64,000 nt of DNA, from IMG/VR virus record IMGVR_UViG_2595698890_000001, positions 1 to 64,000 of that record, one strand, 5' to 3'. Numbering within the stretch: position 1 is the stretch's first letter; each line of letters begins with the position of its first letter. Shown one piece after another: positions 3,162 through 62,849 of this stretch. Both the position numbers and the translations under genes were made by a program. The notes beneath the pieces were generated by a model. That model searched no databases. It was not told where the DNA came from and worked only from the letters and a program-made list of their open reading frames with translations. The stretch comes from a virus. Taxonomy: Duplodnaviria; Caudoviricetes.

Positions 3162-3946
3162 TGCAATACCCTATTCTAGTAACAGGTCCGGTAGGATCTC
3201 TGGCATTGCAGTACACTGTAGACAACTCGGACCGCGTGATCGAGATTGTCCGCAACATGCTGGGCGAGGACTTTACTCCTACGTTCCGAGAGCCGGATGT
3301 ACTCCAGTACCCTGTCATGGGTGGTATGCAGCTAATCAAGATTGGCTGTTGGATCGTGTGGGATACGAAGTCGTTGCACTGTGTGGATGACATCTACTTC
3401 GGTAAGAACTGGGTTCCCGTTGAGAAGCCGCTAGACGCTCCAGTACCAGACCCGGTAGGTGAAGGTCGCGCAATCGTTAGTTACGCCGTGGGCGACTCTA
3501 CCATCGCAGAAGGCGTTACGTTCATCATGGACAATGGGATTGCCAAGCACACGGCTCACTGCATTCGCGGTGACTGGATGCCTTACGATGACATCTACGG
3601 GCAGCTGTGCTTAGTATTCCCGGAGAACGGTGGTATGGGTACTCTGGCTATTCAGGACCTAGACCCGGAAACTAAGCTCACGATGAACTACTGTGGGGCT
3701 GTGGAAGCTGCTAAGCAAGGGCACCGCGTGTGTCGTAGTGGCTGGAATGGTGACGACATGTTCTTGGTGTACATCCCGGAGGCTGAAGTAAGCACCGATG
3801 GTACGGGCTTGCGTCCGTTCTTTGGTAGCACTATGCCTCTACGCGCCCACTGGTTACTAAAAACAGCTCAGGGTGACGTAGCCGTCTGGAGTCCAGCGGT
3901 ATCGGACAGCCTAGCGGAAGACTGGGAAATCTACAGCCCAGAATAA
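3161..3946 (+). CDS. multidomain protein with C-terminal DUF2829 (Tad2-like) domain
   Basis: MNY..AVEA.K.G.RV.R.GWNG..MFL...LKTAQG....W.P...D.LAEDW is the DUF2829 signature. Confidence 0.8.
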   Translation: MQYPILVTGPVGSLALQYTVDNSDRVIEIVRNMLGEDFTPTFREPDVLQYPVMGGMQLIKIGCWIVWDTKSLHCVDDIYFGKNWVPVEKPLDAPVPDPVGEGRAIVSYAVGDSTIAEGVTFIMDNGIAKHTAHCIRGDWMPYDDIYGQLCLVFPENGGMGTLAIQDLDPETKLTMNYCGAVEAAKQGHRVCRSGWNGDDMFLVYIPEAEVSTDGTGLRPFFGSTMPLRAHWLLKTAQGDVAVWSPAVSDSLAEDWEIYSPE

Positions 3947-3960
3947 TTTACTAAAATGTA

Positions 3961-3989
3961 TTGACTATAGGAAACAGGGGGAATATACT
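3961..3989 (+). promoter_or_regulatory. sigma70-type promoter
   Basis: TTGACT-17-TATACT, preceded by TTTACTAAA. Confidence 0.8.
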
Positions 3990-5851: not shown

Positions 5852-6328
5852 ATGGGAATCCGATGTTTCCTGTTTGGACACAAGGCAGATGTCAAACGTC
5901 CAAATAACGTGAACCACATGTTCACACCCACCCAGCTGACAATAAGCGTGTTCGGTGAGCCGGGTATAACACCACCCATCTACACCGGATACACCTACAT
6001 GGGAGAAATAGCCACGTGTACGCGCTGTGGTGAAGACTTCGATGCTACTTGGCTAGATATTCCAGTTATACAGCCAAAAACGCCGGAGACGCCCAGTGGG
6101 GAGCCCCCGTGGTCGCTAAACGACGAGCACCGACAGCTTTACTTGTTCTGGGTGGACGTAACCAAGAAACACTCATGTGCGGACCAGTTCATCACGCGCA
6201 AGCAGGTATCGTACTTGTGGCGTTGTATATACAAAATTACTAACGACCGAGAACGCTTAACGCAGGTGGAGAAGGATACCTGTAACGACATCATCCGCCA
6301 GTACTGGCGTAACAAGAAGGCAAGATAA
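5852..6328 (+). CDS. hypothetical protein with C..FGH / CxRC putative Zn site
   Basis: AAGGAG RBS; CFLFGHK ... CTRCG. Confidence 0.65.
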   Translation: MGIRCFLFGHKADVKRPNNVNHMFTPTQLTISVFGEPGITPPIYTGYTYMGEIATCTRCGEDFDATWLDIPVIQPKTPETPSGEPPWSLNDEHRQLYLFWVDVTKKHSCADQFITRKQVSYLWRCIYKITNDRERLTQVEKDTCNDIIRQYWRNKKAR

Positions 6329-6534
6329 TGCGTATATTACTAATACTAGCACTGGCGCTGCTATCAGGATGCGCCTCCCCGGAACGTCTGCACAACATGC
6401 ACTGTGACCAATGGGTGCGTGACCAAGTGATCAACCACGGACGCGACATGATGGAAGCCGTCAAAGAGTGTGGGTACAAGAAGACCCCGCGTGTTAAGCC
6501 GGGCGACTTATACCCACGCGTGAGGGTTTACTAA
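6328..6534 (+). CDS. small lipoprotein
   Basis: Hydrophobic signal peptide with lipobox LSGC. Confidence 0.7.
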   Translation: MRILLILALALLSGCASPERLHNMHCDQWVRDQVINHGRDMMEAVKECGYKKTPRVKPGDLYPRVRVY

Positions 6535-6758
6535 TGAAGATTTACTACTTCGCATCGTTCGACCACTTCCTGACATGGGTAGATTGGAATCTCTACGCAA
6601 ACGGACACTTGCTCCTGATCTTCATCTGGTCGTTCATACTGGTACGCCAGCTAACCGGGATACGCGTCAAGATGTGGCAAGCACTGGCTAACACTGCGGC
6701 TGTGGTCCTAGTGTGGCTGTTCGTAGTGTACACAGCCTACGGAACTGGCGTTGGTTAA
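6534..6758 (+). CDS. small membrane protein
   Basis: Two hydrophobic segments; TAATG coupling. Confidence 0.6.
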   Translation: MKIYYFASFDHFLTWVDWNLYANGHLLLIFIWSFILVRQLTGIRVKMWQALANTAAVVLVWLFVVYTAYGTGVG

Positions 6759-6772
6759 TTTACTAAAAAGTA

Positions 6773-6801
6773 TTGACCTCTATCTGAAACAGCGTTACTA
6801 T
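6773..6801 (+). promoter_or_regulatory. sigma70-type promoter for AphA-like gene
   Basis: TTGACC-17-TACTAT, preceded by TTTACTAAA. Confidence 0.7.
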
Positions 6802-6841
6802 CATCACCACTAACTAACATAACAACTGAGAGATTACTAAA

Positions 6842-7375
6842 ATGGCTACTATCACCAACCTACAGAAAGTACTTATCCACTTCGTGGCTACTGGCAAAGA
6901 CGTTACTGGCTACCAGATCGCACACCACTGCATGGCTGAGCACGACCTGCACTGGACTGCTTCTCACCAACAGGTGTACCGCGAACTGCGCCGCCTAGAA
7001 GCAGCTGGTATTCTAACGTGTGAAGAGATTCCGCAGGACGGCAAGCCTAACAAGTTCATCTACCACCTAACTGAAGACAAAGGCGTCAAGGCTTACGATG
7101 ACCTCCGCGCTCACGAGCCGTGCGACTACGTTGGTCTTAACACTCAGGCTACTATCCACGCTCTATTCCCTACGAAAGAGTACTACGCGGCTTACCTACA
7201 GAAGCGTAACGAAGAGTGCGAAGCCTTGTACTTGCGTAAGTGCCAAGACGGTGTTTCCAAGATGGAAGAGGCGCTGATTGACCGTCGTATCTTGATCCTG
7301 CACGCTGAGTGTACGTTCGCCCAGAAGATGCTAATGCTTCTTGACGAAGAAAACCCGGTTGTATCAGAGCAGTAA
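6842..7375 (+). CDS. PadR-family winged-helix regulator, AphA-like
   Basis: TGY.I..., W.ASHQQVYREL, LTC...PQ.GKP....Y..T match Vibrio AphA as recalled; 177 aa, similar length. Confidence 0.85.
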   Translation: MATITNLQKVLIHFVATGKDVTGYQIAHHCMAEHDLHWTASHQQVYRELRRLEAAGILTCEEIPQDGKPNKFIYHLTEDKGVKAYDDLRAHEPCDYVGLNTQATIHALFPTKEYYAAYLQKRNEECEALYLRKCQDGVSKMEEALIDRRILILHAECTFAQKMLMLLDEENPVVSEQ

Positions 7376-7402
7376 TTTACTAAACTTAAAGGAGCAGAAG
7401 TC

Positions 7403-7735
7403 ATGCGATTCTCAACAATCACTGTAGGTCATAAGTACTCGAAATGGGTAGCTGCGGGAATGGAGCTAAGTCATCACAACCTAGCCCCGCTACTAAGTGC
7501 CGCTGTAAAGCCAACACAGCGCATAGTATCCATGACCTACCACGATAGGGGTGGTATGGGTGCCCACTACGACATAGTGCTGGAAAACTACGAAGTCCCT
7601 ATGGTGGACAATGTGCAGGAGAACTACGAGTACTACCGTACCATGTGTGCGAATAACTGGCAGACCGACCCAATGCTTAATCCCAACGCTACGGATGCTA
7701 TATCGAAGAAGCCCGCACGACGCTCCCGCAAGTAA
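7403..7735 (+). CDS. hypothetical protein with basic tail
   Basis: AAGGAG RBS; ends KKPARRSRK. Confidence 0.65.
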   Translation: MRFSTITVGHKYSKWVAAGMELSHHNLAPLLSAAVKPTQRIVSMTYHDRGGMGAHYDIVLENYEVPMVDNVQENYEYYRTMCANNWQTDPMLNPNATDAISKKPARRSRK

Positions 7736-7738
7736 AAC

Positions 7739-7766
7739 AAGACCCTCGCACATGCGGGGGTTTTTT
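7739..7766 (+). terminator. intrinsic terminator
   Basis: ACCCTCGCA-ca-TGCGGGGGT plus T run. Confidence 0.7.
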
Positions 7767-7802
7767 ATGTATAATCCGCCCGAACCAACTGGAGGAATTA
7801 GT

Positions 7803-8138
7803 ATGAGCATACTCGACTCAATCATAACCGGAACAGTGATCCCGACATTCAGTATCGACGCGGGATTTATTGGGTCTGACATGCAGGACATCGTTGTGGA
7901 GTACACCGAAGTATCTCGATCCGAGGTGGGGACCACGCTAACGGCGCTTTACACGAAGTACCCAAACTTCAAGGCTACCTGCCGAGCTGAGATTCCCAAG
8001 CACACACCACTGAGCTCAAGCCAAGTTAATACGGCGTTCGCCAACGCAGAAAAGAACCCAGCCTCGACTCTTAGTGTGTTTATCGGACTACTAGCCAGCT
8101 ACTGGCTAAACCACTGTAGAAACAATAAGGACAAGTAG
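7803..8138 (+). CDS. hypothetical protein
   Basis: GGAGG RBS before ATG 7803. Confidence 0.6.
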   Translation: MSILDSIITGTVIPTFSIDAGFIGSDMQDIVVEYTEVSRSEVGTTLTALYTKYPNFKATCRAEIPKHTPLSSSQVNTAFANAEKNPASTLSVFIGLLASYWLNHCRNNKDK

Positions 8139-8166
8139 CCGTATGGTTGTCTAAAAGGAGACCGTC

Positions 8167-8463
8167 ATGCGTAAAGAAGTATCTTGTTTTAGTAAGGGTG
8201 GTAAGTTGACTCGTGAGATGAAAGTCATCTTAGACGTGGCGACTACCATAGAGCTAGCTTTAGTAAATAACTCGGACAAAGAGCCGTTGGTTGTAATGGT
8301 CCAAACGGCACGCCGCCTGAAGCAGTCCCCTCGATACCGCAAGCAGTGGGCACAGTCCATTGTTAATAAATACCTACACGCCGATGCTCGCGTACTGCAA
8401 GCACATCGTGATACCGTAGACAGCTTATTCGCCCTGCGTGATGCTGGCTATAAAACTTACTAA
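8167..8463 (+). CDS. hypothetical protein
   Basis: AAGGAG RBS. Confidence 0.6.
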   Translation: MRKEVSCFSKGGKLTREMKVILDVATTIELALVNNSDKEPLVVMVQTARRLKQSPRYRKQWAQSIVNKYLHADARVLQAHRDTVDSLFALRDAGYKTY

Positions 8464-8478
8464 CTGAAAGGAGGGATT

Positions 8479-9129
8479 GTGGGAGCACTTCCTAATAACA
8501 GCCGAAAAGAGTCGAAGGACTCACCAGACCTTTACGTGACTAACCACCCGTTAGCCATCCCCGGTCTGTTTTCTCGATGGCGTCCAGAACCGGGCTCATT
8601 GATCCTAGAGCCCTGCTGTGGGCTGTGTCATATCTCTGACCGCCTAGAAGAGTTTGGGCATGTAGTTCACAGCTTCGACCTGTACAACTGGGGTCGTGGT
8701 AACTGTCGTCCTGAGTACGATGCCCAAGAGTACCAGTATGACCAGTACGAGTGTATTATTACTAATCCGCCGTACAACCACGCGATGCCGATTGTACTAA
8801 ACCTTCTGGAAACGGCGCTGGCGGAAAACGGCTCTATGGCTATGCTACTACGCCTAGAGTTCCAGACAGGCAAAGCACGTGCAGCTGCCTTAGAGCAAAC
8901 ACCACTAAAATACATCCTACCGTTCTCATTCCGTATCGAGTGTGACAAGGGTGTGGTGCTGGAGGAGAACGATGACGGATCGTACGCTACCGAAATCGAG
9001 AAGTCCCCGAACTCCTCTAACTACGCGTGGTTTATCTGGGAAGCTGGCTACGAGGGCTACCCAACCACTAAGTACATCCACCAAGACCAAGCTGAAGCGG
9101 TACTCGCTGAGCTTACTAAAGGAGAATAA
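8479..9129 (+). CDS. DNA amino-methyltransferase (likely N6-adenine)
   Basis: SAM-binding LEPCCG.C and catalytic ITNPPY motifs; GTG start after GAGG. Confidence 0.8.
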   Translation: MGALPNNSRKESKDSPDLYVTNHPLAIPGLFSRWRPEPGSLILEPCCGLCHISDRLEEFGHVVHSFDLYNWGRGNCRPEYDAQEYQYDQYECIITNPPYNHAMPIVLNLLETALAENGSMAMLLRLEFQTGKARAAALEQTPLKYILPFSFRIECDKGVVLEENDDGSYATEIEKSPNSSNYAWFIWEAGYEGYPTTKYIHQDQAEAVLAELTKGE

Positions 9130-9133
9130 TCCA

Positions 9134-9535
9134 ATGCGAAATCCAACCGTAAAAGAAGTGGCGGACGAGATCGAAAGTCTTACGAGAGGATCAGGCACCA
9201 CACTGCGCAACAGTATCATGGTGGCAGTAAATACTATGCGTGAGGGCGGTCCACTCACGCTGTTTGGGTACGTTGTAGATAAGACCGGGGAGGCTACCGT
9301 CTTCAAGTGCGAGGTTCCAGTTGAGGAGGTAGTGGGCGTCTACCCGAGCACGGGTGAGATCATCGTCCGTGTAGACCCTCCGATCACCGGGGCTCGACTA
9401 TTTCCTACAATGGAGGTCGCCCGCGTACGAGCTTCACACAGAGTAGTGCAGCGCATGGAGAAACTGCGCAAGCATAGTCGTGAAGTCTCTGGTCTTACTG
9501 CTAGTAAAGTACCGCTGCTGAAGCTACCTCAGTAA
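9134..9535 (+). CDS. hypothetical protein
   Basis: AAGGAG RBS before ATG 9134. Confidence 0.6.
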   Translation: MRNPTVKEVADEIESLTRGSGTTLRNSIMVAVNTMREGGPLTLFGYVVDKTGEATVFKCEVPVEEVVGVYPSTGEIIVRVDPPITGARLFPTMEVARVRASHRVVQRMEKLRKHSREVSGLTASKVPLLKLPQ

Positions 9536-29376: not shown

Positions 29377-30305
29377 TGCCTTTTTACTCATTAACTGGGG
29401 TGGAGACACCCGAGAAATTGTTCGCAGCCGTAAAGGAGAAGTTAGAACTTAACGGCTACGCCAACGTAACAGCGACAGCTTCCTCCGTAGTGTTCGAAGG
29501 ACCTACCACAGCCTCCGGTCAGCGTTGGAGCGGCTACTGCTCGGTAGGTAAGCAAGGGTCGCAGCGGTCCTACTACACGTCTATCTCCGTGGGTGAGGGT
29601 GTGTCTGGAACATCCCACATCAACAGCTCGGGGAACGCGACTCCCCTGAATAACGGCAACTACAACAGACAGACTAACCATAACATCTGGATCAACGGTG
29701 ATACTACGTTGCAGCTCTTCATTACCAAGCGGGCGGTTATACTGCGTATAATCGGAAGAGACGCTGCCTACGCAAGCAGTGACTTCAACAATACGATGAT
29801 CGTGTATGCTCTGGGTAAGACTACCGGGGAGTTCGGAAGTAAAGACTTCATCCTGTGCTCAGGACCGCAGAGTAAAATAGTTGGTCGCTGGTACTACTCA
29901 ACAGCACTAGGCACTCCGTACAGGTCCTACAACGGCGGAGCTCCCGAGACCAACACCAAGATCTTAAAGTACGACACCGCTGGTAACAAGAGCTGGGCTA
30001 ACAGTAGATCGTCGGAGAATGGATTCTACGGTAAGGCGGGGGATGCTAACTCAGAGGGCAGGTACATGGGGATTCTTAGTAAGATGAAATTCCCAGATAG
30101 TATGACCACCGTGATGATGCCGATGTACATCCGGTCAGGGGGAGAGCTCTACGGTGAGCTAGACAGTATGAGAGCCGTCCCCATGACTTACTACAACACG
30201 GGAGGCTCCTTCACACTAAACTCCAAGAAATGGCTGGTGTGCAGTACCACGGAGTACCGAGCGGACAACAACGCGCACATGGGCTTCGCGCTGAGAGAGG
30301 ACTGA
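29376..30305 (+). CDS. virion tail structural protein
   Basis: Architecture resembles upstream gene (GELD near C-terminus); TAATG coupling. Confidence 0.7.
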   Translation: MPFYSLTGVETPEKLFAAVKEKLELNGYANVTATASSVVFEGPTTASGQRWSGYCSVGKQGSQRSYYTSISVGEGVSGTSHINSSGNATPLNNGNYNRQTNHNIWINGDTTLQLFITKRAVILRIIGRDAAYASSDFNNTMIVYALGKTTGEFGSKDFILCSGPQSKIVGRWYYSTALGTPYRSYNGGAPETNTKILKYDTAGNKSWANSRSSENGFYGKAGDANSEGRYMGILSKMKFPDSMTTVMMPMYIRSGGELYGELDSMRAVPMTYYNTGGSFTLNSKKWLVCSTTEYRADNNAHMGFALRED

Positions 30306-36314: not shown

Positions 36315-36596
36315 ATGAAGATGCGCGAGATGCTAATGCTCGCGCTATCCATTGTGATAGCGTTAGCGGTGGTAATGCTTATGGCGGACCCATCAACGTT
36401 TGGTTTAATCTTAGTAAAGACAGCTAAGGCGGTAGTCGCGCTGGCAGCTTTACGTCTAACAGTCTACTACTTGGACAAGGTGGTAGGCATCGACTTCAAG
36501 AAAGCGATGGGGGGATGGGATGGTCAGGCTATGGCTATTTATCTCGGTGCTCGTTTCATTGGTGCTGCCGTTCTCTTCGGCTGCGTCTTTGGTTAA
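36315..36596 (+). CDS. holin
   Basis: 93 aa, about 3 TM segments, MKM dual-start-like N-terminus, upstream of endolysin. Confidence 0.7.
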   Translation: MKMREMLMLALSIVIALAVVMLMADPSTFGLILVKTAKAVVALAALRLTVYYLDKVVGIDFKKAMGGWDGQAMAIYLGARFIGAAVLFGCVFG

Positions 36597-37110
36597 GAAC
36601 ACCGAGTACGATCATCTAATCTACAAGGCATGGGAGAACTACGTACCACAGACGCAATGCTGGCACTGGCTGAAAGCACAGTACTACCAAGAGAGTTTGC
36701 TGAAGCCGGATGCCAAGAGTCATGTGGGGGCTATGGGAATAGCACAGGTCATGCCCGGTACTTGGTTAGACATTAGTAAGAAACTCCGTTTTAACGCACG
36801 AGCGTCACCCTACGACCCTGAGCTCTCAATCGAAGCTGGCGCTTACTACCTGAATTACCAGTGGAGCCAGTGGCGAGCAAAGCGGACTTTCGAAGATAGA
36901 ATCAGCTTAGCCTTTGCAGGATACAACGCAGGACTGGGCAACATACTAAAAGCACAGCGCCTGTCCGGGGGTCGGGCAGATTGGAAGTCGATTAGCGAAG
37001 CACTCCCGGGAGTCACGGGAGAGAACAGCAAGGAGACCATCCAGTACGTCGAACGTATCTTCCGCTGGAAGAAACAACTAGACGAGCATCGAAGTTGTGT
37101 AATTTACTAA
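36520..37110 (+). CDS. endolysin, SLT lytic transglycosylase with N-terminal signal sequence
   Basis: QES..P.A.S.VGAMG.AQ.MPGTW, YNAG.GN, ET..YV. Confidence 0.92.
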   Translation: MVRLWLFISVLVSLVLPFSSAASLVKNTEYDHLIYKAWENYVPQTQCWHWLKAQYYQESLLKPDAKSHVGAMGIAQVMPGTWLDISKKLRFNARASPYDPELSIEAGAYYLNYQWSQWRAKRTFEDRISLAFAGYNAGLGNILKAQRLSGGRADWKSISEALPGVTGENSKETIQYVERIFRWKKQLDEHRSCVIY

Positions 37111-37119
37111 AACTATAAC

Positions 37120-37145
37120 AGGGAGCTTCGGCTCCCTTTATTTTT
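37120..37145 (+). terminator. intrinsic terminator
   Basis: AGGGAGC-ttcg-GCTCCCT plus T-rich tail. Confidence 0.8.
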
Positions 37146-37165
37146 ACTAATGTGAGATTACTAAA

Positions 37166-37660
37166 ATGTTTGGTACATTACTAAGATACGGAGGCACATT
37201 ACTAAAAGGTGTGTCTGCATTCTGGAACCGATACAAATTACTAATTATTTTGTCCGTCGCGCTGGGAGCGATTTACAGGGCGTATTCGATTGGATATGAC
37301 CTAGGTTCCACCTATGAGCGACAAAAGGCTACCACGGCGATTCTGGACGCCACAAACAAGGCTAGAGAGGAAGAGCTTTCCTACTACCGGGACCAGATAG
37401 CCCGCTTAAACGAAAAACACCGCAAAGAACTCGAATTGGAGAAGAGTAATGTTAAGATACAAACCGTCATTGAGACCAAGTGGCTTACTAAAACGCCAGT
37501 GTGTGAGATTAGTAAAACTGACCCTGAGCAGTTTGTTTTTAGTAATGAGTATGTCGGCTTGTACAACGACGCAGTACGTGCAGCCAACAGAGCCACCCAA
37601 GAAGGACATCCCGCCGGAATTACTAAAACGCTGCCCACCAATGAAGACAGTGGAGAGTAA
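37166..37660 (+). CDS. i-spanin (Rz-like)
   Basis: TM anchor, coiled coil, C-terminal Cys; follows endolysin. Confidence 0.75.
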   Translation: MFGTLLRYGGTLLKGVSAFWNRYKLLIILSVALGAIYRAYSIGYDLGSTYERQKATTAILDATNKAREEELSYYRDQIARLNEKHRKELELEKSNVKIQTVIETKWLTKTPVCEISKTDPEQFVFSNEYVGLYNDAVRAANRATQEGHPAGITKTLPTNEDSGE

Positions 37661-41316: not shown

Positions 41317-42935
41317 TGGCTACAAACAAAAACATGATGAGCATTCCAGATGCTCAGGACATCGTTACACTCGCGTGTTTTAGTGAGAAGGCAGCACCGC
41401 AGCTGTTCGCAAGTGTAACACTACGCCACTTGCCTAACGACAAGCTGCGTGAAGTGTTCTCTCGTGCTAAGGACTACTTTGATGAGTACGGCAAGCCTGT
41501 AGGCTCCCATATCACCAACGAGTTCGCAGACGAGCTTAATGACCGCAAACAGCGTGCTCGTGCTAACGGCTACCGCGACCTGATCGAAGGTCTGATGGAG
41601 AACGCCGAAGAGGTAAACGCAGAGTACGTGCTGAAGGGATTGCGTGACTTCCTGTGGGTGCAAGAGCTTCGCGGTAACATTCCTAAGCTGGTAGAGAATC
41701 TTGAAGACAACAAACTGAAGGAAACTGAGGCGATCCTCAACAAGCTGGCATCCACAAAGCAGGAGGAAGACTTTAACTACATCTGGGCTTCCGATATGGA
41801 GCAGGTGTACCAAGGGATCTTCCATCGTGAAGTCGGTGAGAGTCTTGAGATCGGCATCAAGGAGCTGGACGAGAACAACGTTCGACCTACCAAGAAAGAG
41901 CTTTTAGTAATGCTGGCACCGCCTAAGCGTGGTAAGTCATGGTTTGGTGTGCAATGCCTACGTGCGGGCGTGCAGAACCGACGCAAGAAGTGGAAGACTT
42001 TACTAATTACTCTTGAAATGGCTCACGTTAAGTTTGGTGAGCGTTTCGTGCAGAATTTGTGGGGTCGCTGCCTAGGTGAGCCTCAAGAGGTGTCGAGTAC
42101 AGTGATCGAGCGTGACGAGTTCGGGTTCATTAGTAATCTGCAAAACGAGCCACGCTATCAGTGCGAATCCATCTTAGATACTTTCGCAGATGAGAAGCAC
42201 GCAGCCCGAGCAACACAAGAATGGTTTGAGAAGCATTCTACAGAGCGCCCGTTCGTAATGGCTCAGTTCCCGACAGGTGCCTTTACTATGCGTAAACTGC
42301 GGGCTTTGGTAGACTGGTTAGATAAGGTCGAGGGTTGGCATCCAGATCAGATCATCCTCGATTACCCGGGGATCATGAAACTAGACATCAACAACAAGCG
42401 CCAAGCTATGAACCAGCTTTATCAGGACCTTCGTGGCTTCGCGGTTACTAACAATATCGCAATGGTTGCATTCCACCAGTCTAACCGTGACGGTGCTCGT
42501 GAGCAGGGTATCGACGACGTGATTGACGAAACGAATGCGGGCGAGGATTTTTCCGTAACACAGCACGCGGATTACCTCATAACTTACAACCAGTCCCCTG
42601 TTGAGCGTGAGCTTAACTTAGCGCGACTATACGTACCCCTTAACCGTAACGGTAAGGACAAGTACCAGATCGTAATCAGCCAGAACTACGCTACCGGGCA
42701 GTTCTGTTTGACGAGTGCGTATCGCGGGGGTGACTACACAGGACTTGTGGTGCCAGATGCAGAAGAAGCGAATGAGAACCCAACTCGTGAAAGAGCCGCA
42801 GTCGAGCCTCCGAAGGGATTCCAGATCGACGAGTATGGAACGTGGTTCGACCCGGAAACTGGCGAAGTCTGGAAAGGCAACAATAAGGGAGCAGGTAATG
42901 GGGAAGGTTCAGGATTTCTTAAACAGGGAGCTTGA
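41316..42935 (+). CDS. DnaB-like replicative helicase
   Basis: APPKRGKS, ITLEM, IILDY, HQSNRDG. Confidence 0.88.
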   Translation: MATNKNMMSIPDAQDIVTLACFSEKAAPQLFASVTLRHLPNDKLREVFSRAKDYFDEYGKPVGSHITNEFADELNDRKQRARANGYRDLIEGLMENAEEVNAEYVLKGLRDFLWVQELRGNIPKLVENLEDNKLKETEAILNKLASTKQEEDFNYIWASDMEQVYQGIFHREVGESLEIGIKELDENNVRPTKKELLVMLAPPKRGKSWFGVQCLRAGVQNRRKKWKTLLITLEMAHVKFGERFVQNLWGRCLGEPQEVSSTVIERDEFGFISNLQNEPRYQCESILDTFADEKHAARATQEWFEKHSTERPFVMAQFPTGAFTMRKLRALVDWLDKVEGWHPDQIILDYPGIMKLDINNKRQAMNQLYQDLRGFAVTNNIAMVAFHQSNRDGAREQGIDDVIDETNAGEDFSVTQHADYLITYNQSPVERELNLARLYVPLNRNGKDKYQIVISQNYATGQFCLTSAYRGGDYTGLVVPDAEEANENPTRERAAVEPPKGFQIDEYGTWFDPETGEVWKGNNKGAGNGEGSGFLKQGA

Positions 42936-60379: not shown

Positions 60380-62232
60380 GTTTGCATTTACTAAATATCC
60401 GTGGAGAGAAGTTCAAGAGCTTTGTGGAGCCCTTCGATTTCTGCCTAAACCGACAGCCGGGGTTGTACCTACTGCGGGGTGATAACGTAGCCGAGCCGAG
60501 CCTAGGTGGTAACGGTGTTGGTAAGTCTACCATCTGGGACGCACTATTCTGGGCATTCACCGGGACGACGTTGCGTAACCTGAAGAACACAGACGTGAAG
60601 CCTTGGGGAACATCTGGAAGTACTTGGGTGGAGTTCCAAGCGTGTTTGGATGAGGACCTGATCACGGTACGCCGCCAGACATCACCGAACGCGTTGACTA
60701 TCGAGTCTGACAACCACCAGACAGGACCACAGGACATCTCTACAGAGGAGTTACTAAGATTCTTCAACATGGATGAAACCCAGCTCTTGCACTCTCTGAT
60801 TGTCGGTCAGTTTGGGACATTCTTCTTTGATATGCTCCCGGCTAAGAAGCAGGAACTCTTCTCATCCATCTTGTCGCTCGATGTCTGGATCAGCCGCAGT
60901 AAAGTAGCTGGTCAGATGGTTAAGGACATGAAGAACGCCCTCCAGCTGGCAGAGGTCGAGTACGGTAAGCTTGAGTCTGCGCTGGCTACGCTTGGTAAGG
61001 TAGGATACGAGGGAGATGCCGACCAGTGGGAAGAGGAGCACGCCATCGAGCTTGAGGAGTGGGAAGCCACTATCGAACGTCTAAAGCACGAGCTTGGCAC
61101 TAAGGACATTAGTAAGATTGATAAGGACCGTACGTGGGCTGAGCAATTACTAAATGACGTAGAGAGCACCCTCCGGGAGATGAAGCGAGAGATCGATAAC
61201 CTGAAGGAAGACATCCGGGAAGTAGAAGCAGACAAGCGGGACGCCGACAATGCCATCGAGGACATGCTCAAGGACTTGGCTGTGACTATGGATCAAGGTG
61301 AGTGCTCATACTGCGGGCATGGTGTATCTGACAACGAGATAGACCGTCTGGAGAGCAGCACCCGAGTAAAAGTTGACGAGCTTGAGGATAAGATCGACAG
61401 CCTTATTGACGAGGGCAAAGAGCTGCAAAAGGACTTGAAGCCTAAGCAGGACTACTACGAGGACCAGCAGCGTGAGCGCGAGGGACTACTAGACAAGCTT
61501 AGTAAATTAGACTCGGAAGCCCGTATGGTTTCACAGGACAGGAAGCGTATCGAGCGCGAGCTACGCCACGCTGAAGGGTCCTACGATAAACTACTACGGA
61601 CAGAGAACCCTTGGGCTAAGCTGCGAGATGATAACGAGTCCGATGCAATCGAATTAGGTGCAAAGATTATCGAGTGTAACGAGACTATTAGTAACCTGAA
61701 TACAGCGATAGCACGTACTCAGTACTGGGTGAAAGGATTCAAGGACGTACGCTTGTTCATGATCGATAACTACCTTGTGGACCTAGAAGTGGAGGTCAAT
61801 AACTCCATCAAGCAGCTGGGATTAGATGGCTGGCGTATAGAGTTCTCCGTAGATAGGGAGACCCAGCGCGGTACGATCAAGAAAGGATTCGAGGTCTACG
61901 TGTACTCACCACGCAATACTAAGCCTGTTAAGTGGGAGTGCTGGAGTGGGGGCGAATCCTCACGACTTAAACTGGCGGGCGAGCTAGGGCTTATGGAGAT
62001 GATCTTCACGGCTACCGGGCAGGAACCTAACATCGAGGTGTTTGACGAGCCGACTAGCTTTATGTCCCCAGAAGGTATCGAAGACCTTCTAGAGCTACTG
62101 CGAGAGCGTGCTTTACTAAAGCAGAAGCAGATTTATATAATCGACCACCACTCGATCAACTTCGGAGGATTCGAGGGTGTGATCACCATTCAACGCGATA
62201 ACCTAGGAAGTCGCATACTGGAGACCAGATAA
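60376..62232 (+). CDS. Rad50/SbcC-like ABC ATPase
   Basis: NGVGKST, coiled coil with CSYC hook, SGGE signature, FDEP, IDH. Confidence 0.93.
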   Translation: MSLHLLNIRGEKFKSFVEPFDFCLNRQPGLYLLRGDNVAEPSLGGNGVGKSTIWDALFWAFTGTTLRNLKNTDVKPWGTSGSTWVEFQACLDEDLITVRRQTSPNALTIESDNHQTGPQDISTEELLRFFNMDETQLLHSLIVGQFGTFFFDMLPAKKQELFSSILSLDVWISRSKVAGQMVKDMKNALQLAEVEYGKLESALATLGKVGYEGDADQWEEEHAIELEEWEATIERLKHELGTKDISKIDKDRTWAEQLLNDVESTLREMKREIDNLKEDIREVEADKRDADNAIEDMLKDLAVTMDQGECSYCGHGVSDNEIDRLESSTRVKVDELEDKIDSLIDEGKELQKDLKPKQDYYEDQQREREGLLDKLSKLDSEARMVSQDRKRIERELRHAEGSYDKLLRTENPWAKLRDDNESDAIELGAKIIECNETISNLNTAIARTQYWVKGFKDVRLFMIDNYLVDLEVEVNNSIKQLGLDGWRIEFSVDRETQRGTIKKGFEVYVYSPRNTKPVKWECWSGGESSRLKLAGELGLMEMIFTATGQEPNIEVFDEPTSFMSPEGIEDLLELLRERALLKQKQIYIIDHHSINFGGFEGVITIQRDNLGSRILETR

Positions 62233-62849
62233 TGCTAAATTTTACTGTTAGTAAAACTAACCTGATTATGTTCCCGTGGGTTCGTAACACACTCGTAGCG
62301 GAAGACACACAGCCTTGTATCAGCGGCGTGTTTAACGTTAAGTTTGTGCTCAACGCAGAGTCTCAATCGGACTCGGAAGAGATTGTGGACCACTCATTCA
62401 TCGACGCCTATGCGGGCATGATCGCGGACTTGTTCCGTGATACTAACATCGTGTGGGATAAGGACGAGGCTGGGCGTACGGTGGCGAAGTCCATCCACGA
62501 GTCTTACCCTCGCACTCGAATCCTGACAACGCCGTACAACCCTACTATGGAGAACGTAGCCGGGATGTTCTACGCGATTATGCACCGCGTGCTGTGTGCT
62601 AGTAACTTTACTAACTCGGAAGACCCGGACCTATGCCTTGTGTCTGTAGTGCTGGAAGACGTAACACGTGGGCATTCGGCTGAGTGTACGCAGTGGGCGC
62701 ACGAGGGGCGCTACATGAAGAACGGTGCACAATTCCATTGGACGGAATCCATCACGGACTTATCTGAGTTTGACGTGGTATCACTTTTTACTGAGGACGT
62801 TCGTATAGGTGTTCCAGTAGCAGGTACTACGGTAGACAAGTATGAGTAG
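62232..62849 (+). CDS. QueD/PTPS-like T-fold protein, catalytically degenerate
   Basis: IVD.S.I, NPT.EN.A, L.SV.L.D pattern of QueD; N-terminal His/Cys ligands absent. Confidence 0.6.
   Translation: MLNFTVSKTNLIMFPWVRNTLVAEDTQPCISGVFNVKFVLNAESQSDSEEIVDHSFIDAYAGMIADLFRDTNIVWDKDEAGRTVAKSIHESYPRTRILTTPYNPTMENVAGMFYAIMHRVLCASNFTNSEDPDLCLVSVVLEDVTRGHSAECTQWAHEGRYMKNGAQFHWTESITDLSEFDVVSLFTEDVRIGVPVAGTTVDKYE

Follow-up and report, generated by a model that had tools for sequence, protein, structure and literature searches.

The window, by which we mean the whole stretch of DNA analysed here, comprises bases 1–64,000 of a 78,751-base virus record (IMGVR_UViG_2595698890_000001). At positions 6842–7375 of its plus strand lies an open reading frame (ORF) that starts with ATG and encodes 177 amino acids; its product, hereafter the regulator, is a two-domain PadR subfamily-1 winged-helix transcription factor. 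Residues 17–79 matched the Pfam family PadR (PF03551) with 36.5 bits against a cut-off of 27 (E = 4.7e-9), and residues 2–174 aligned with positions 1–177 of the 178 in the phrog_13512 profile (E = 2.2e-76); none of the NCBIfam models approached its cut-off. The AlphaFold model, computed from an input alignment of 52 sequences, had a mean predicted local distance difference test (pLDDT) score of 93.3, and its C-terminal half was helical (helices 102–106, 112–133 and 140–170). The protein was compared above all with PadR of Bacillus subtilis (5x11) and with AphA, the low-cell-density quorum-sensing and virulence regulator of Vibrio, of which 1yg2 is the Vibrio cholerae structure. The gene is divided as follows:

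6842–7375, plus strand: coding sequence of the PadR subfamily-1 regulator (phrog_13512), including the stop codon (ORF list, Pfam, PHROG, AlphaFold)
6857–7072, plus strand: N-terminal winged-helix half, segment (model secondary structure; alignments with AphA 1yg2 and B. subtilis PadR 5x11)
6953–6988, plus strand: WTASHQQVYREL, start of the recognition helix, residues 38–49 (alignment to B. subtilis PadR)
7031–7048, plus strand: wing tip PQDGKP, residues 64–69 (alignments)
7145–7351, plus strand: C-terminal helical domain, residues 102–170, the PadR subfamily-1 dimerisation domain (model helices; whole-chain structural matches)

The original prediction, drawn from the letters alone, had described a phage-encoded AphA homologue with a W.ASHQQVYREL recognition helix, a wing of the form TC..PQ.GKP and a C-terminal helical region. 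The ORF and its recognition helix are there, with WTASHQQVYREL at residues 38–49, and the helical region corresponds to the helices predicted by the AlphaFold model at 112–133 and 140–170. The wing is also present, with the sequence LTCEEIPQDGKPN; the pattern given for it was one residue short, since TC and PQ are separated by three residues, as in AphA. Within the wing, P69 is invariant in the aligned relatives, and Q65, G67 and K68 are almost so. In B. subtilis PadR, Y20, Y42 and K67 are described as hot-spot or signature residues of DNA binding, and H38, S39 and Q40 as contacting bases (PMC5728393). The signature residues Y20, Y42 and basic 67 are found in the regulator as Y24, Y46 and K71, and the counterparts there of the base-contacting H38, S39, Q40 and Y42 are H42, Q43, Q44 and Y46. 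H42, Q43 and Y46 do not vary among the 52 aligned relatives, at least 90% of which also have Q44.

The whole-chain matches of the model, obtained with Foldseek and VIA-align, were two-domain PadR subfamily-1 proteins, i.e. 5x11 (Z = 14.6), VanR (Z = 14.6 and 14.1) and AphA 1yg2 (Z = 13.8, root-mean-square deviation 3.0, 153 residues aligned). As these scores are tied, the fold does not single out AphA. The architecture that defines subfamily 1 (two domains, ~19–22 kDa, two long C-terminal helices) is that of the regulator. With B. subtilis PadR and Corynebacterium VanR (5z7b and 6lg2, effector-responsive repressors) it shares the whole-chain fold and the DNA-binding hot-spot residues; it differs from them in sequence, with 18–25% identity, and the window has no operator of their type, ATGT-N8-ACAT.

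At the sequence level, AphA 1yg2 was the best match among solved structures (E = 1.2e-13, compared to 5.4e-7 for PadR 5x11), in a search alignment that spanned residues 10–81 only. We took 80 chromosomal aphA loci from named Vibrio genomes, 78 of which encode 179 amino acids. The regulator resembles AphA in its subfamily-1 architecture, in length (177 versus 179 residues) and, more closely, in the winged-helix half, where both helices start with W-T/K-ASHQQVYREL, differing in one residue, and both wings carry PQ.GKP; the AphA motif WKASHQQVYREL given in the original prediction is correct for Vibrio AphA. The overall identity is 29%, a value given by V. harveyi AphA over 173 residues, and it is unevenly spread: against five AphA sequences it was 39–40% at residues 1–81 but 9–13% at residues 82–177, so that the C-terminal domain is not AphA-like. 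That same region is 36–74% identical to the relatives P0002–P0004. Further differences from AphA are the shorter linker between the C-terminal helices, the wing residues NKF in place of DRK, and the location of the gene, which is carried by a phage, whereas AphA is encoded at the conserved chromosomal aphA locus.

A protein search of 1.84 billion cluster representatives gave 396 matches at E ≤ 0.001, of which the best 150 were analysed. The top cluster matches, P0003 (43%), P0004 (39%) and P0005 (35%), aligned over the full length. The representatives with an AphA N-terminus, P0029 and P0034, ranked 29th and 34th in the best 150 of 396; with 27 non-AphA representatives outscoring the first AphA-cluster one, the regulator and AphA are not mutual closest relatives, as orthologues would be. 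When P0002 was added to the best 150, W.ASHQQVYREL was found in 26 and SHQQ[VI]Y in 84 of the 151 proteins. The motif is therefore a clade-wide feature and not a mark of AphA. On the host side, AphA was the best match of the regulator in two (V. harveyi and V. metoecus) of the three Vibrio genomes that were inspected by locus, and the third, V. diabolicus, had a closer paralogue. Matches at E ≤ 1e-5 were present in 181 of 201 Vibrionaceae genomes, the best reaching 64.5 bits and 32% identity; with nothing closer than this, the regulator is not a recent capture from the host. Thus, the claim of homology to AphA holds, through the best solved-structure match and the best host match in two genomes, while the likeness is confined to the winged-helix half, and the regulator is a distant paralogue of AphA and not its orthologue.

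The phylogeny gave a compatible picture. The 126 rows of the tree were drawn from three sources: four proteins from phages, 10 from the set of 80 AphA sequences, and 112 of 149 matches (37 were dropped for a length outside 150–210 residues). AphA and its two representatives (12 rows) formed one group (support 94) within a 19-row set. The window protein joined first the SSP002 group (99) and then P0003 and P0004 (99); all of these lay in a 58-row clade (98) distinct from that set. The 58-row clade and the 19-row AphA set were sisters in a 77-row clade (97). In this tree, then, the branch of the regulator is sister to the branch containing AphA and holds proteins of other Vibrio phages. Forcing AphA and the phage group together cost 56.4 log-likelihood units and was rejected by the approximately unbiased (AU) test at p-AU = 0.0004, in a 48-row subset under LG+G4, with the constrained group named after the tree had first been seen and under a simpler model that rejects a few true clades. 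The regulator thus belongs to the nearest neighbour of the AphA clade, not to an unrelated one, and stands outside the AphA clade itself; this placement seems close to the grouping with unrelated PadR clades that the original prediction had named as its own refutation.

The divergence of the C-terminal half bears on one proposed mode of action, in which the regulator acts as a dominant-negative partner and forms inactive heterodimers with host AphA. The two proteins have a common architecture and close lengths, and in subfamily 1 the dimers are described as being held together by the C-terminal domain, which also contacts the N-terminal domain of the partner (PMC5728393). At 9–13% identity in the C-terminal domain, the partner contacts of AphA are unlikely to be kept, and AphA has extra residues between its helices. 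Such near-random similarity makes a heterodimer with AphA unlikely, and we consider the dominant-negative explanation very improbable.

The carrier is an SSP002/R01-like Vibrio siphophage, assigned to the genus Mardecavirus by the SSP002 record. Window bases 6000–8500 share 93% DNA identity with Vibrio phage R01, and the regulator is 99.4% identical to the R01 protein and 73.6–74.1% identical to those of 36 SSP002-group phages. We scanned 101 ORFs against PHROGs, namely the 80 window ORFs of at least 50 amino acids and 21 chosen among the listed ORFs (at least 70 amino acids long) in the last 15.7 kb. The matches included packaging, head, tail, lysis and a full replication set, and 13 ORFs had no match; none of the 101 matched an integrase, an excisionase or a CI-type repressor. 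The regulator, surrounded by small leftward genes, was the sole ORF in the category "transcription regulation". A Mardecavirus isolate has been described as lytic (PMC13729227), and the Mardecavirus-type relative vB_VpaS_MAR10 has been called temperate (PMC13670528).

We tentatively prefer the view that the regulator acts on the transcription of the phage and rank it above mimicry of AphA on the host chromosome. The lack of any other transcription-regulator family match among the ORFs scanned in the 78.7-kb genome was counted in its favour. In this scheme, the gene would be transcribed by the host RNA polymerase soon after infection, and the protein would form a homodimer via its own C-terminal domain. 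With its HQQVY helix and GKP wing, the dimer would recognise an inverted repeat ~16 bp long, and its main action would be on the phage's own transcription, by autoregulation and by shut-off or switching of early promoters. The elements around the gene are the following:

6756–6778, plus strand: element TAATTTACTAAAAAGTATTGACC, containing the 12-mer TAATTTACTAAA (sequence comparison with a near-copy at 3944–3966)
6773–6801, plus strand: predicted sigma-70-like promoter TTGACC-17-TACTAT, upstream of the regulator (consensus scan, 9/12 positions)
6786–6798, plus strand: imperfect inverted repeat GAAAC-AGC-GTTAC, overlapping the spacer and the -10 hexamer (pattern GWAAC-N3-GTTWC)
7403–7735, plus strand: downstream co-oriented ORF of 110 amino acids, phrog_33329, E = 1.8e-69 (ORF list, PHROG match)
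7739–7764, plus strand: terminator-like hairpin and T-run at the end of the two-gene unit (consensus scan; 11 pairs, 6 of them G-C)

The gene had been credited with its own sigma70 promoter. A site is indeed predicted at 6773–6801; its match to the consensus is modest, and phage SSP002 conserves the two hexamers together with part of the spacer. The inverted repeat that overlaps this promoter is retained in SSP002 as GAAACAACGTTAC and may, speculatively, be an autoregulatory site. The 110-residue ORF starts 27 nucleotides (nt) past the stop codon of the regulator and has the ribosome-binding site AAGGAG; a Pfam search with it gave no match. It is probably co-transcribed with the regulator, and with promoter, regulator, small ORF and terminator in sequence, the layout looks like a two-gene unit.

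Such a compact unit would suit a ligand-responsive local regulator, which would, as PadR and VanR do, respond to a small molecule in the interdomain pocket and control only its own operon, including the 7403–7735 ORF, or its neighbours. The model also matches the effector-binding members of subfamily 1 as well as it matches AphA (Z = 14.6 and 14.6/14.1 versus 13.8), and PadR-family regulators are described as usually local in action (PMC5728393). On the other hand, the downstream ORF has no recognisable function and no palindromic operator is evident at the promoter. We judge this explanation improbable, though well ahead of the heterodimer.

Several further observations concern the same upstream region. 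The 12-mer TAATTTACTAAA is placed 5 nt upstream of the -35 hexamer of the regulator promoter. It is part of a near-identical 23-bp element, TAATTTACTAAAAWGTATTGAC, found at 3944–3966 and 6756–6778, and at both of these early-region sites the 12-mer lies 5 nt on the 5′ side of a -35-like TTGAC. The copy at 3944 and its surroundings are ~95% conserved in SSP002, and its -10-like hexamer falls in the loop of a terminator-like hairpin; the 6756–6778 region cross-matches the SSP002 counterpart of 3944–3966. We also considered GAAAC in the spacers of three promoter-like sites (3 versus 1.0 expected, with 5 of 100 shuffles reaching 3), one of which overlaps a terminator-like hairpin, and dropped it. 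Two genes upstream of the regulator, a 68-residue ORF (6328–6534) has a lipoprotein-type signal at its start (…LALALLSGC…) and a weak Rz-like spanin match (phrog_1275, E = 4.7e-6); the lysis genes are ~30 kb away, at 36520–37657.

If the regulator acts on phage DNA, an operator could be expected there, and the scans offered little. The consensus of AphA from chromatin immunoprecipitation sequencing (ChIP-seq) is ATGCAA-N4-TTGCAT (PMC6855506). No canonical AphA box had been seen near the gene by the original prediction, and we found none near it or anywhere in the 78,751 bases at up to two mismatches. Matches with three mismatches were at chance level in the window (14, compared to 18.8 ± 4.4 expected), and the whole genome held 17, with none better. 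The PadR boxes ATGT-N8-ACAT and ACAT-N8-ATGT each occurred zero times in the window. No inverted repeat stood out around the regulator gene, and a count of dyads in 27 intergenic regions gave none that recurred, except those based on the heptamer TTASTAA. GAAAC-AGC-GTTAC is the sole match to GWAAC-N3-GTTWC in the window, yet at least one match arose in 38 of 100 shuffles, so the repeat lacks statistical support. All of these results weigh against action on the phage's own transcription. So do the base-contacting positions, which are identical in AphA and thus compatible with a host target, and the relatives in unrelated types of Vibrionaceae phages, which could point to a host-directed role.

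The scans must be read against a control. In the 500 nt upstream of aphA at 78 Vibrio loci, the best consensus match had three mismatches in 14 loci and four in 64, and functional AphA sites matching only 6–7 of the 12 consensus positions have been reported (PMC6855506). The absence of AphA boxes from the phage is therefore weak evidence, and sequence scans of this kind settle neither the host-directed nor the phage-directed reading. Palindromes upstream of the PadR genes of relatives shared no motif. Phage D65, whose protein belongs to the 58-row clade, has a perfect palindrome, ACACAT-N8-ATGTGT, ~35–55 nt upstream of its PadR gene (3947–3966 of stretch L082), which is a possible operator; a counterpart is absent from the window.

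The relatives are concentrated in one host family. Every one of the 66 matching phage records belongs to a Vibrio phage. In 29 of them the match is below 60% identity; the 23 of these that are listed, at ~28%, include V. crassostreae phages. The proteins of phages D65 and 431E45.1 fall in the same 58-row clade as the regulator, on another branch. Several cluster representatives lie on contigs of 33–88 kb, and named members come from Photobacterium (82–88 kb, one labelled as a plasmid). PLSDB held 26 matching records, all typed as non-mobilisable: 22 from Vibrio, one from Photobacterium, two from Synechocystis and one from Bacillus. One of these, the 93-kb V. alginolyticus plasmid NZ_CP082321.1, is a P1-like phage-plasmid; its PadR gene (8953–9486 of stretch L185) adjoins a Ref-family nuclease and tail genes and encodes a protein 33–34% identical to the regulator. 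Similar PadR genes (28–34% identity) are carried by P1-like phage-plasmids too, their proteins being outside the tree and tied to the clade by similarity only. The IMG/VR scan for relatives returned SSP002 only, the word-indexed protein search returned two proteins, and the metagenome scan found no close relative, the best match being 36% over part of the protein.

This distribution, together with the identical contact residues and the lack of an operator on the phage DNA, sustains the main competitor of a phage-directed role, namely a host-directed AphA mimic. Such a mimic would sit at AphA-type operators of the Vibrio chromosome, and the cell would be driven into the low-density programme or locked out of it. 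Quorum-sensing-controlled defences, receptors or physiology would then change during infection. The relatives sit in unrelated phage types that have the host family alone in common, with 66 of 66 phages from Vibrio and 23 of 26 plasmids from Vibrio or Photobacterium. Moreover, AphA is the best match in two of three Vibrio genomes, most of the 181 matching genomes (of 201) share the N-terminal match pattern, and AphA has the same residues at Y24, H42, Q43, Q44 and Y46. The phage genome yielded no operator-like repeat, and mimicry has already been suggested in the literature for this PHROG family (PMC13670528). However, the contact residues vary little or not at all across the 52 aligned relatives and are therefore no mark of AphA-type specificity. 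The wing reads NKF where AphA has DRK, the regulator falls in a different clade, and its C-terminal domain is unrelated to that of AphA at the sequence level. Even upstream of aphA itself, the best consensus matches were at four mismatches (64 of 78 loci) or three (14 of 78). We regard mimicry of AphA as unlikely, if second only to action on phage transcription. A broader version, somewhat more doubtful still, is that the phage-borne sister clade of AphA constitutes a Vibrionaceae-specific host-takeover factor, which would occupy host AphA-type operators and rewire the quorum-sensing state without pairing with AphA. It would span Mardecavirus siphophages, V. crassostreae phages and P1-like phage-plasmids, in infection or carriage, each with a PadR protein that shares the DNA-reading residues of AphA.

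The heptamer TTASTAA mentioned above deserves a separate description. This exact 7-bp palindrome occurs 294 times in the 78,751 bases (plus-strand centre C in 166 copies and G in 128), compared to 5–21 copies for each one-mismatch variant. In the plus-strand genes of the window, TTACTAA was found 115 times versus 12.4 ± 3.0 and TTAGTAA 66 times versus 6.3 ± 2.2 in 200 synonymous-codon shuffles, i.e. an excess inside genes of ~10-fold over this null. The copies are dispersed without preferred spacing, with clusters such as that at window 37104–37205, and copies flank the regulator gene at 6756–6767 and 7373–7384. At 22 of the 31 window copies alignable with SSP002, TTASTAA is found at the same place, while control 7-mers were fully identical in 14.8%, the aligned stretches being 72% identical. 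The enrichment was absent from the V. crassostreae phage stretches, the phage-plasmid stretch and the Vibrio chromosomal loci that were checked. Papers holding the string TTACTAA were, by title or abstract and among the matches listed, unrelated to the phage heptamer.

Could the regulator be the reader of this motif? Only two proteins of the genome are recognisable as sequence-specific DNA binders, the regulator and a ParB-like protein, and copies of the motif flank the regulator gene. Against this, PadR dimers read half-sites ~10–12 bp apart (ATGT-N8-ACAT, ATGCAA-N4-TTGCAT), with which a 7-bp palindrome does not fit, and the motif copies have no preferred spacing. Two V. crassostreae phages with a PadR protein of the same broad clade have one and zero copies, in 8.5 kb each. 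We give this idea very little weight, no more than the heterodimer. Other candidate readers are the ParB-like protein or a small adenine methyltransferase (8479–9126). The former (348 amino acids, record positions 67027–68073, L184:4027–5073) lies beyond the window and matched phrog_32069 (E = 7e-238) and Pfam HTH_ParB (29.5 bits), with ParB_N slightly below its cut-off (26.0 bits); no plasmid-maintenance or lysogeny module was found in the phage. KorB, a repressor of the ParB family, recognises a short palindrome centred on G/C, and on this ground the ParB-like protein is a candidate reader. Outside the group, the methyltransferase has its nearest relative in Aeromonas phage Akh-2 (32% identity), which has 22 TTASTAA in 49 kb at 40% G+C, not among its top 7-mers; no link between heptamer and methyltransferase emerged from this comparison.

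Two other regions of the phage drew our attention. Window positions 29377–30229 (853 bases) and 41317–42714 (1,398 bases) hold no plus-strand ORF of at least 50 amino acids and just small minus-strand ORFs without PHROG matches, in an otherwise tightly packed genome of single orientation; they could contain an origin, regulatory RNAs or unrecognised small genes. Near the end of the window, a 205-residue ORF (62232–62846, phrog_34362) has a weak QueD-like match (phrog_2389, E = 7e-6), and a MazG-like gene adjoins it just beyond the window, which hints at nucleotide or base-modification chemistry in the phage.

Kinship between a phage protein and AphA has been reported before. In PMC13670528 (Environ Microbiome 2026, and a preprint), phrog_13512 is named as the "AphA homolog" of prophage.8, by that account in silico only, so the idea is not new here, and the window gene adds a further member to the family. 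The authors put the identity to host AphA at ~35%, describe a similar fold and a clade separate from bacterial AphA, include the MAR10 protein in the comparison, and speculate on quorum sensing and the lysis-lysogeny switch (PMC13670528). The prophage.8 protein and the regulator belong to the same PHROG family, and the elements differ: prophage.8 is presented as inducible and P1-like, a prophage or phage-plasmid in which a Ref nuclease adjoins the gene, a context resembling that of V. alginolyticus plasmid NZ_CP082321.1, whereas the present carrier is a siphophage with no lysogeny genes found in 101 ORFs. A viral "aphA" is also listed in PMC11295528, and the same suggestion has been made for the PadR genes of a jumbo vibriophage (PMC12685585). 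Our literature search for PadR together with SSP002 found no paper.

The regulator is, in the end, an ordinary-looking phage transcription factor whose kinship with AphA is real but distant. The useful results are the limits they set: the likeness is restricted to the DNA-binding half, the motif is clade-wide, and neither an AphA box nor another operator can be read on the phage DNA. If the regulator did act at host AphA-type sites, a common group of lytic vibriophages, many of which have been proposed for biocontrol in aquaculture and food, would carry a stand-in for the master regulator of quorum sensing. Such a stand-in would bear on the evasion of density-controlled defences and on the virulence or biofilm behaviour of the surviving cells.

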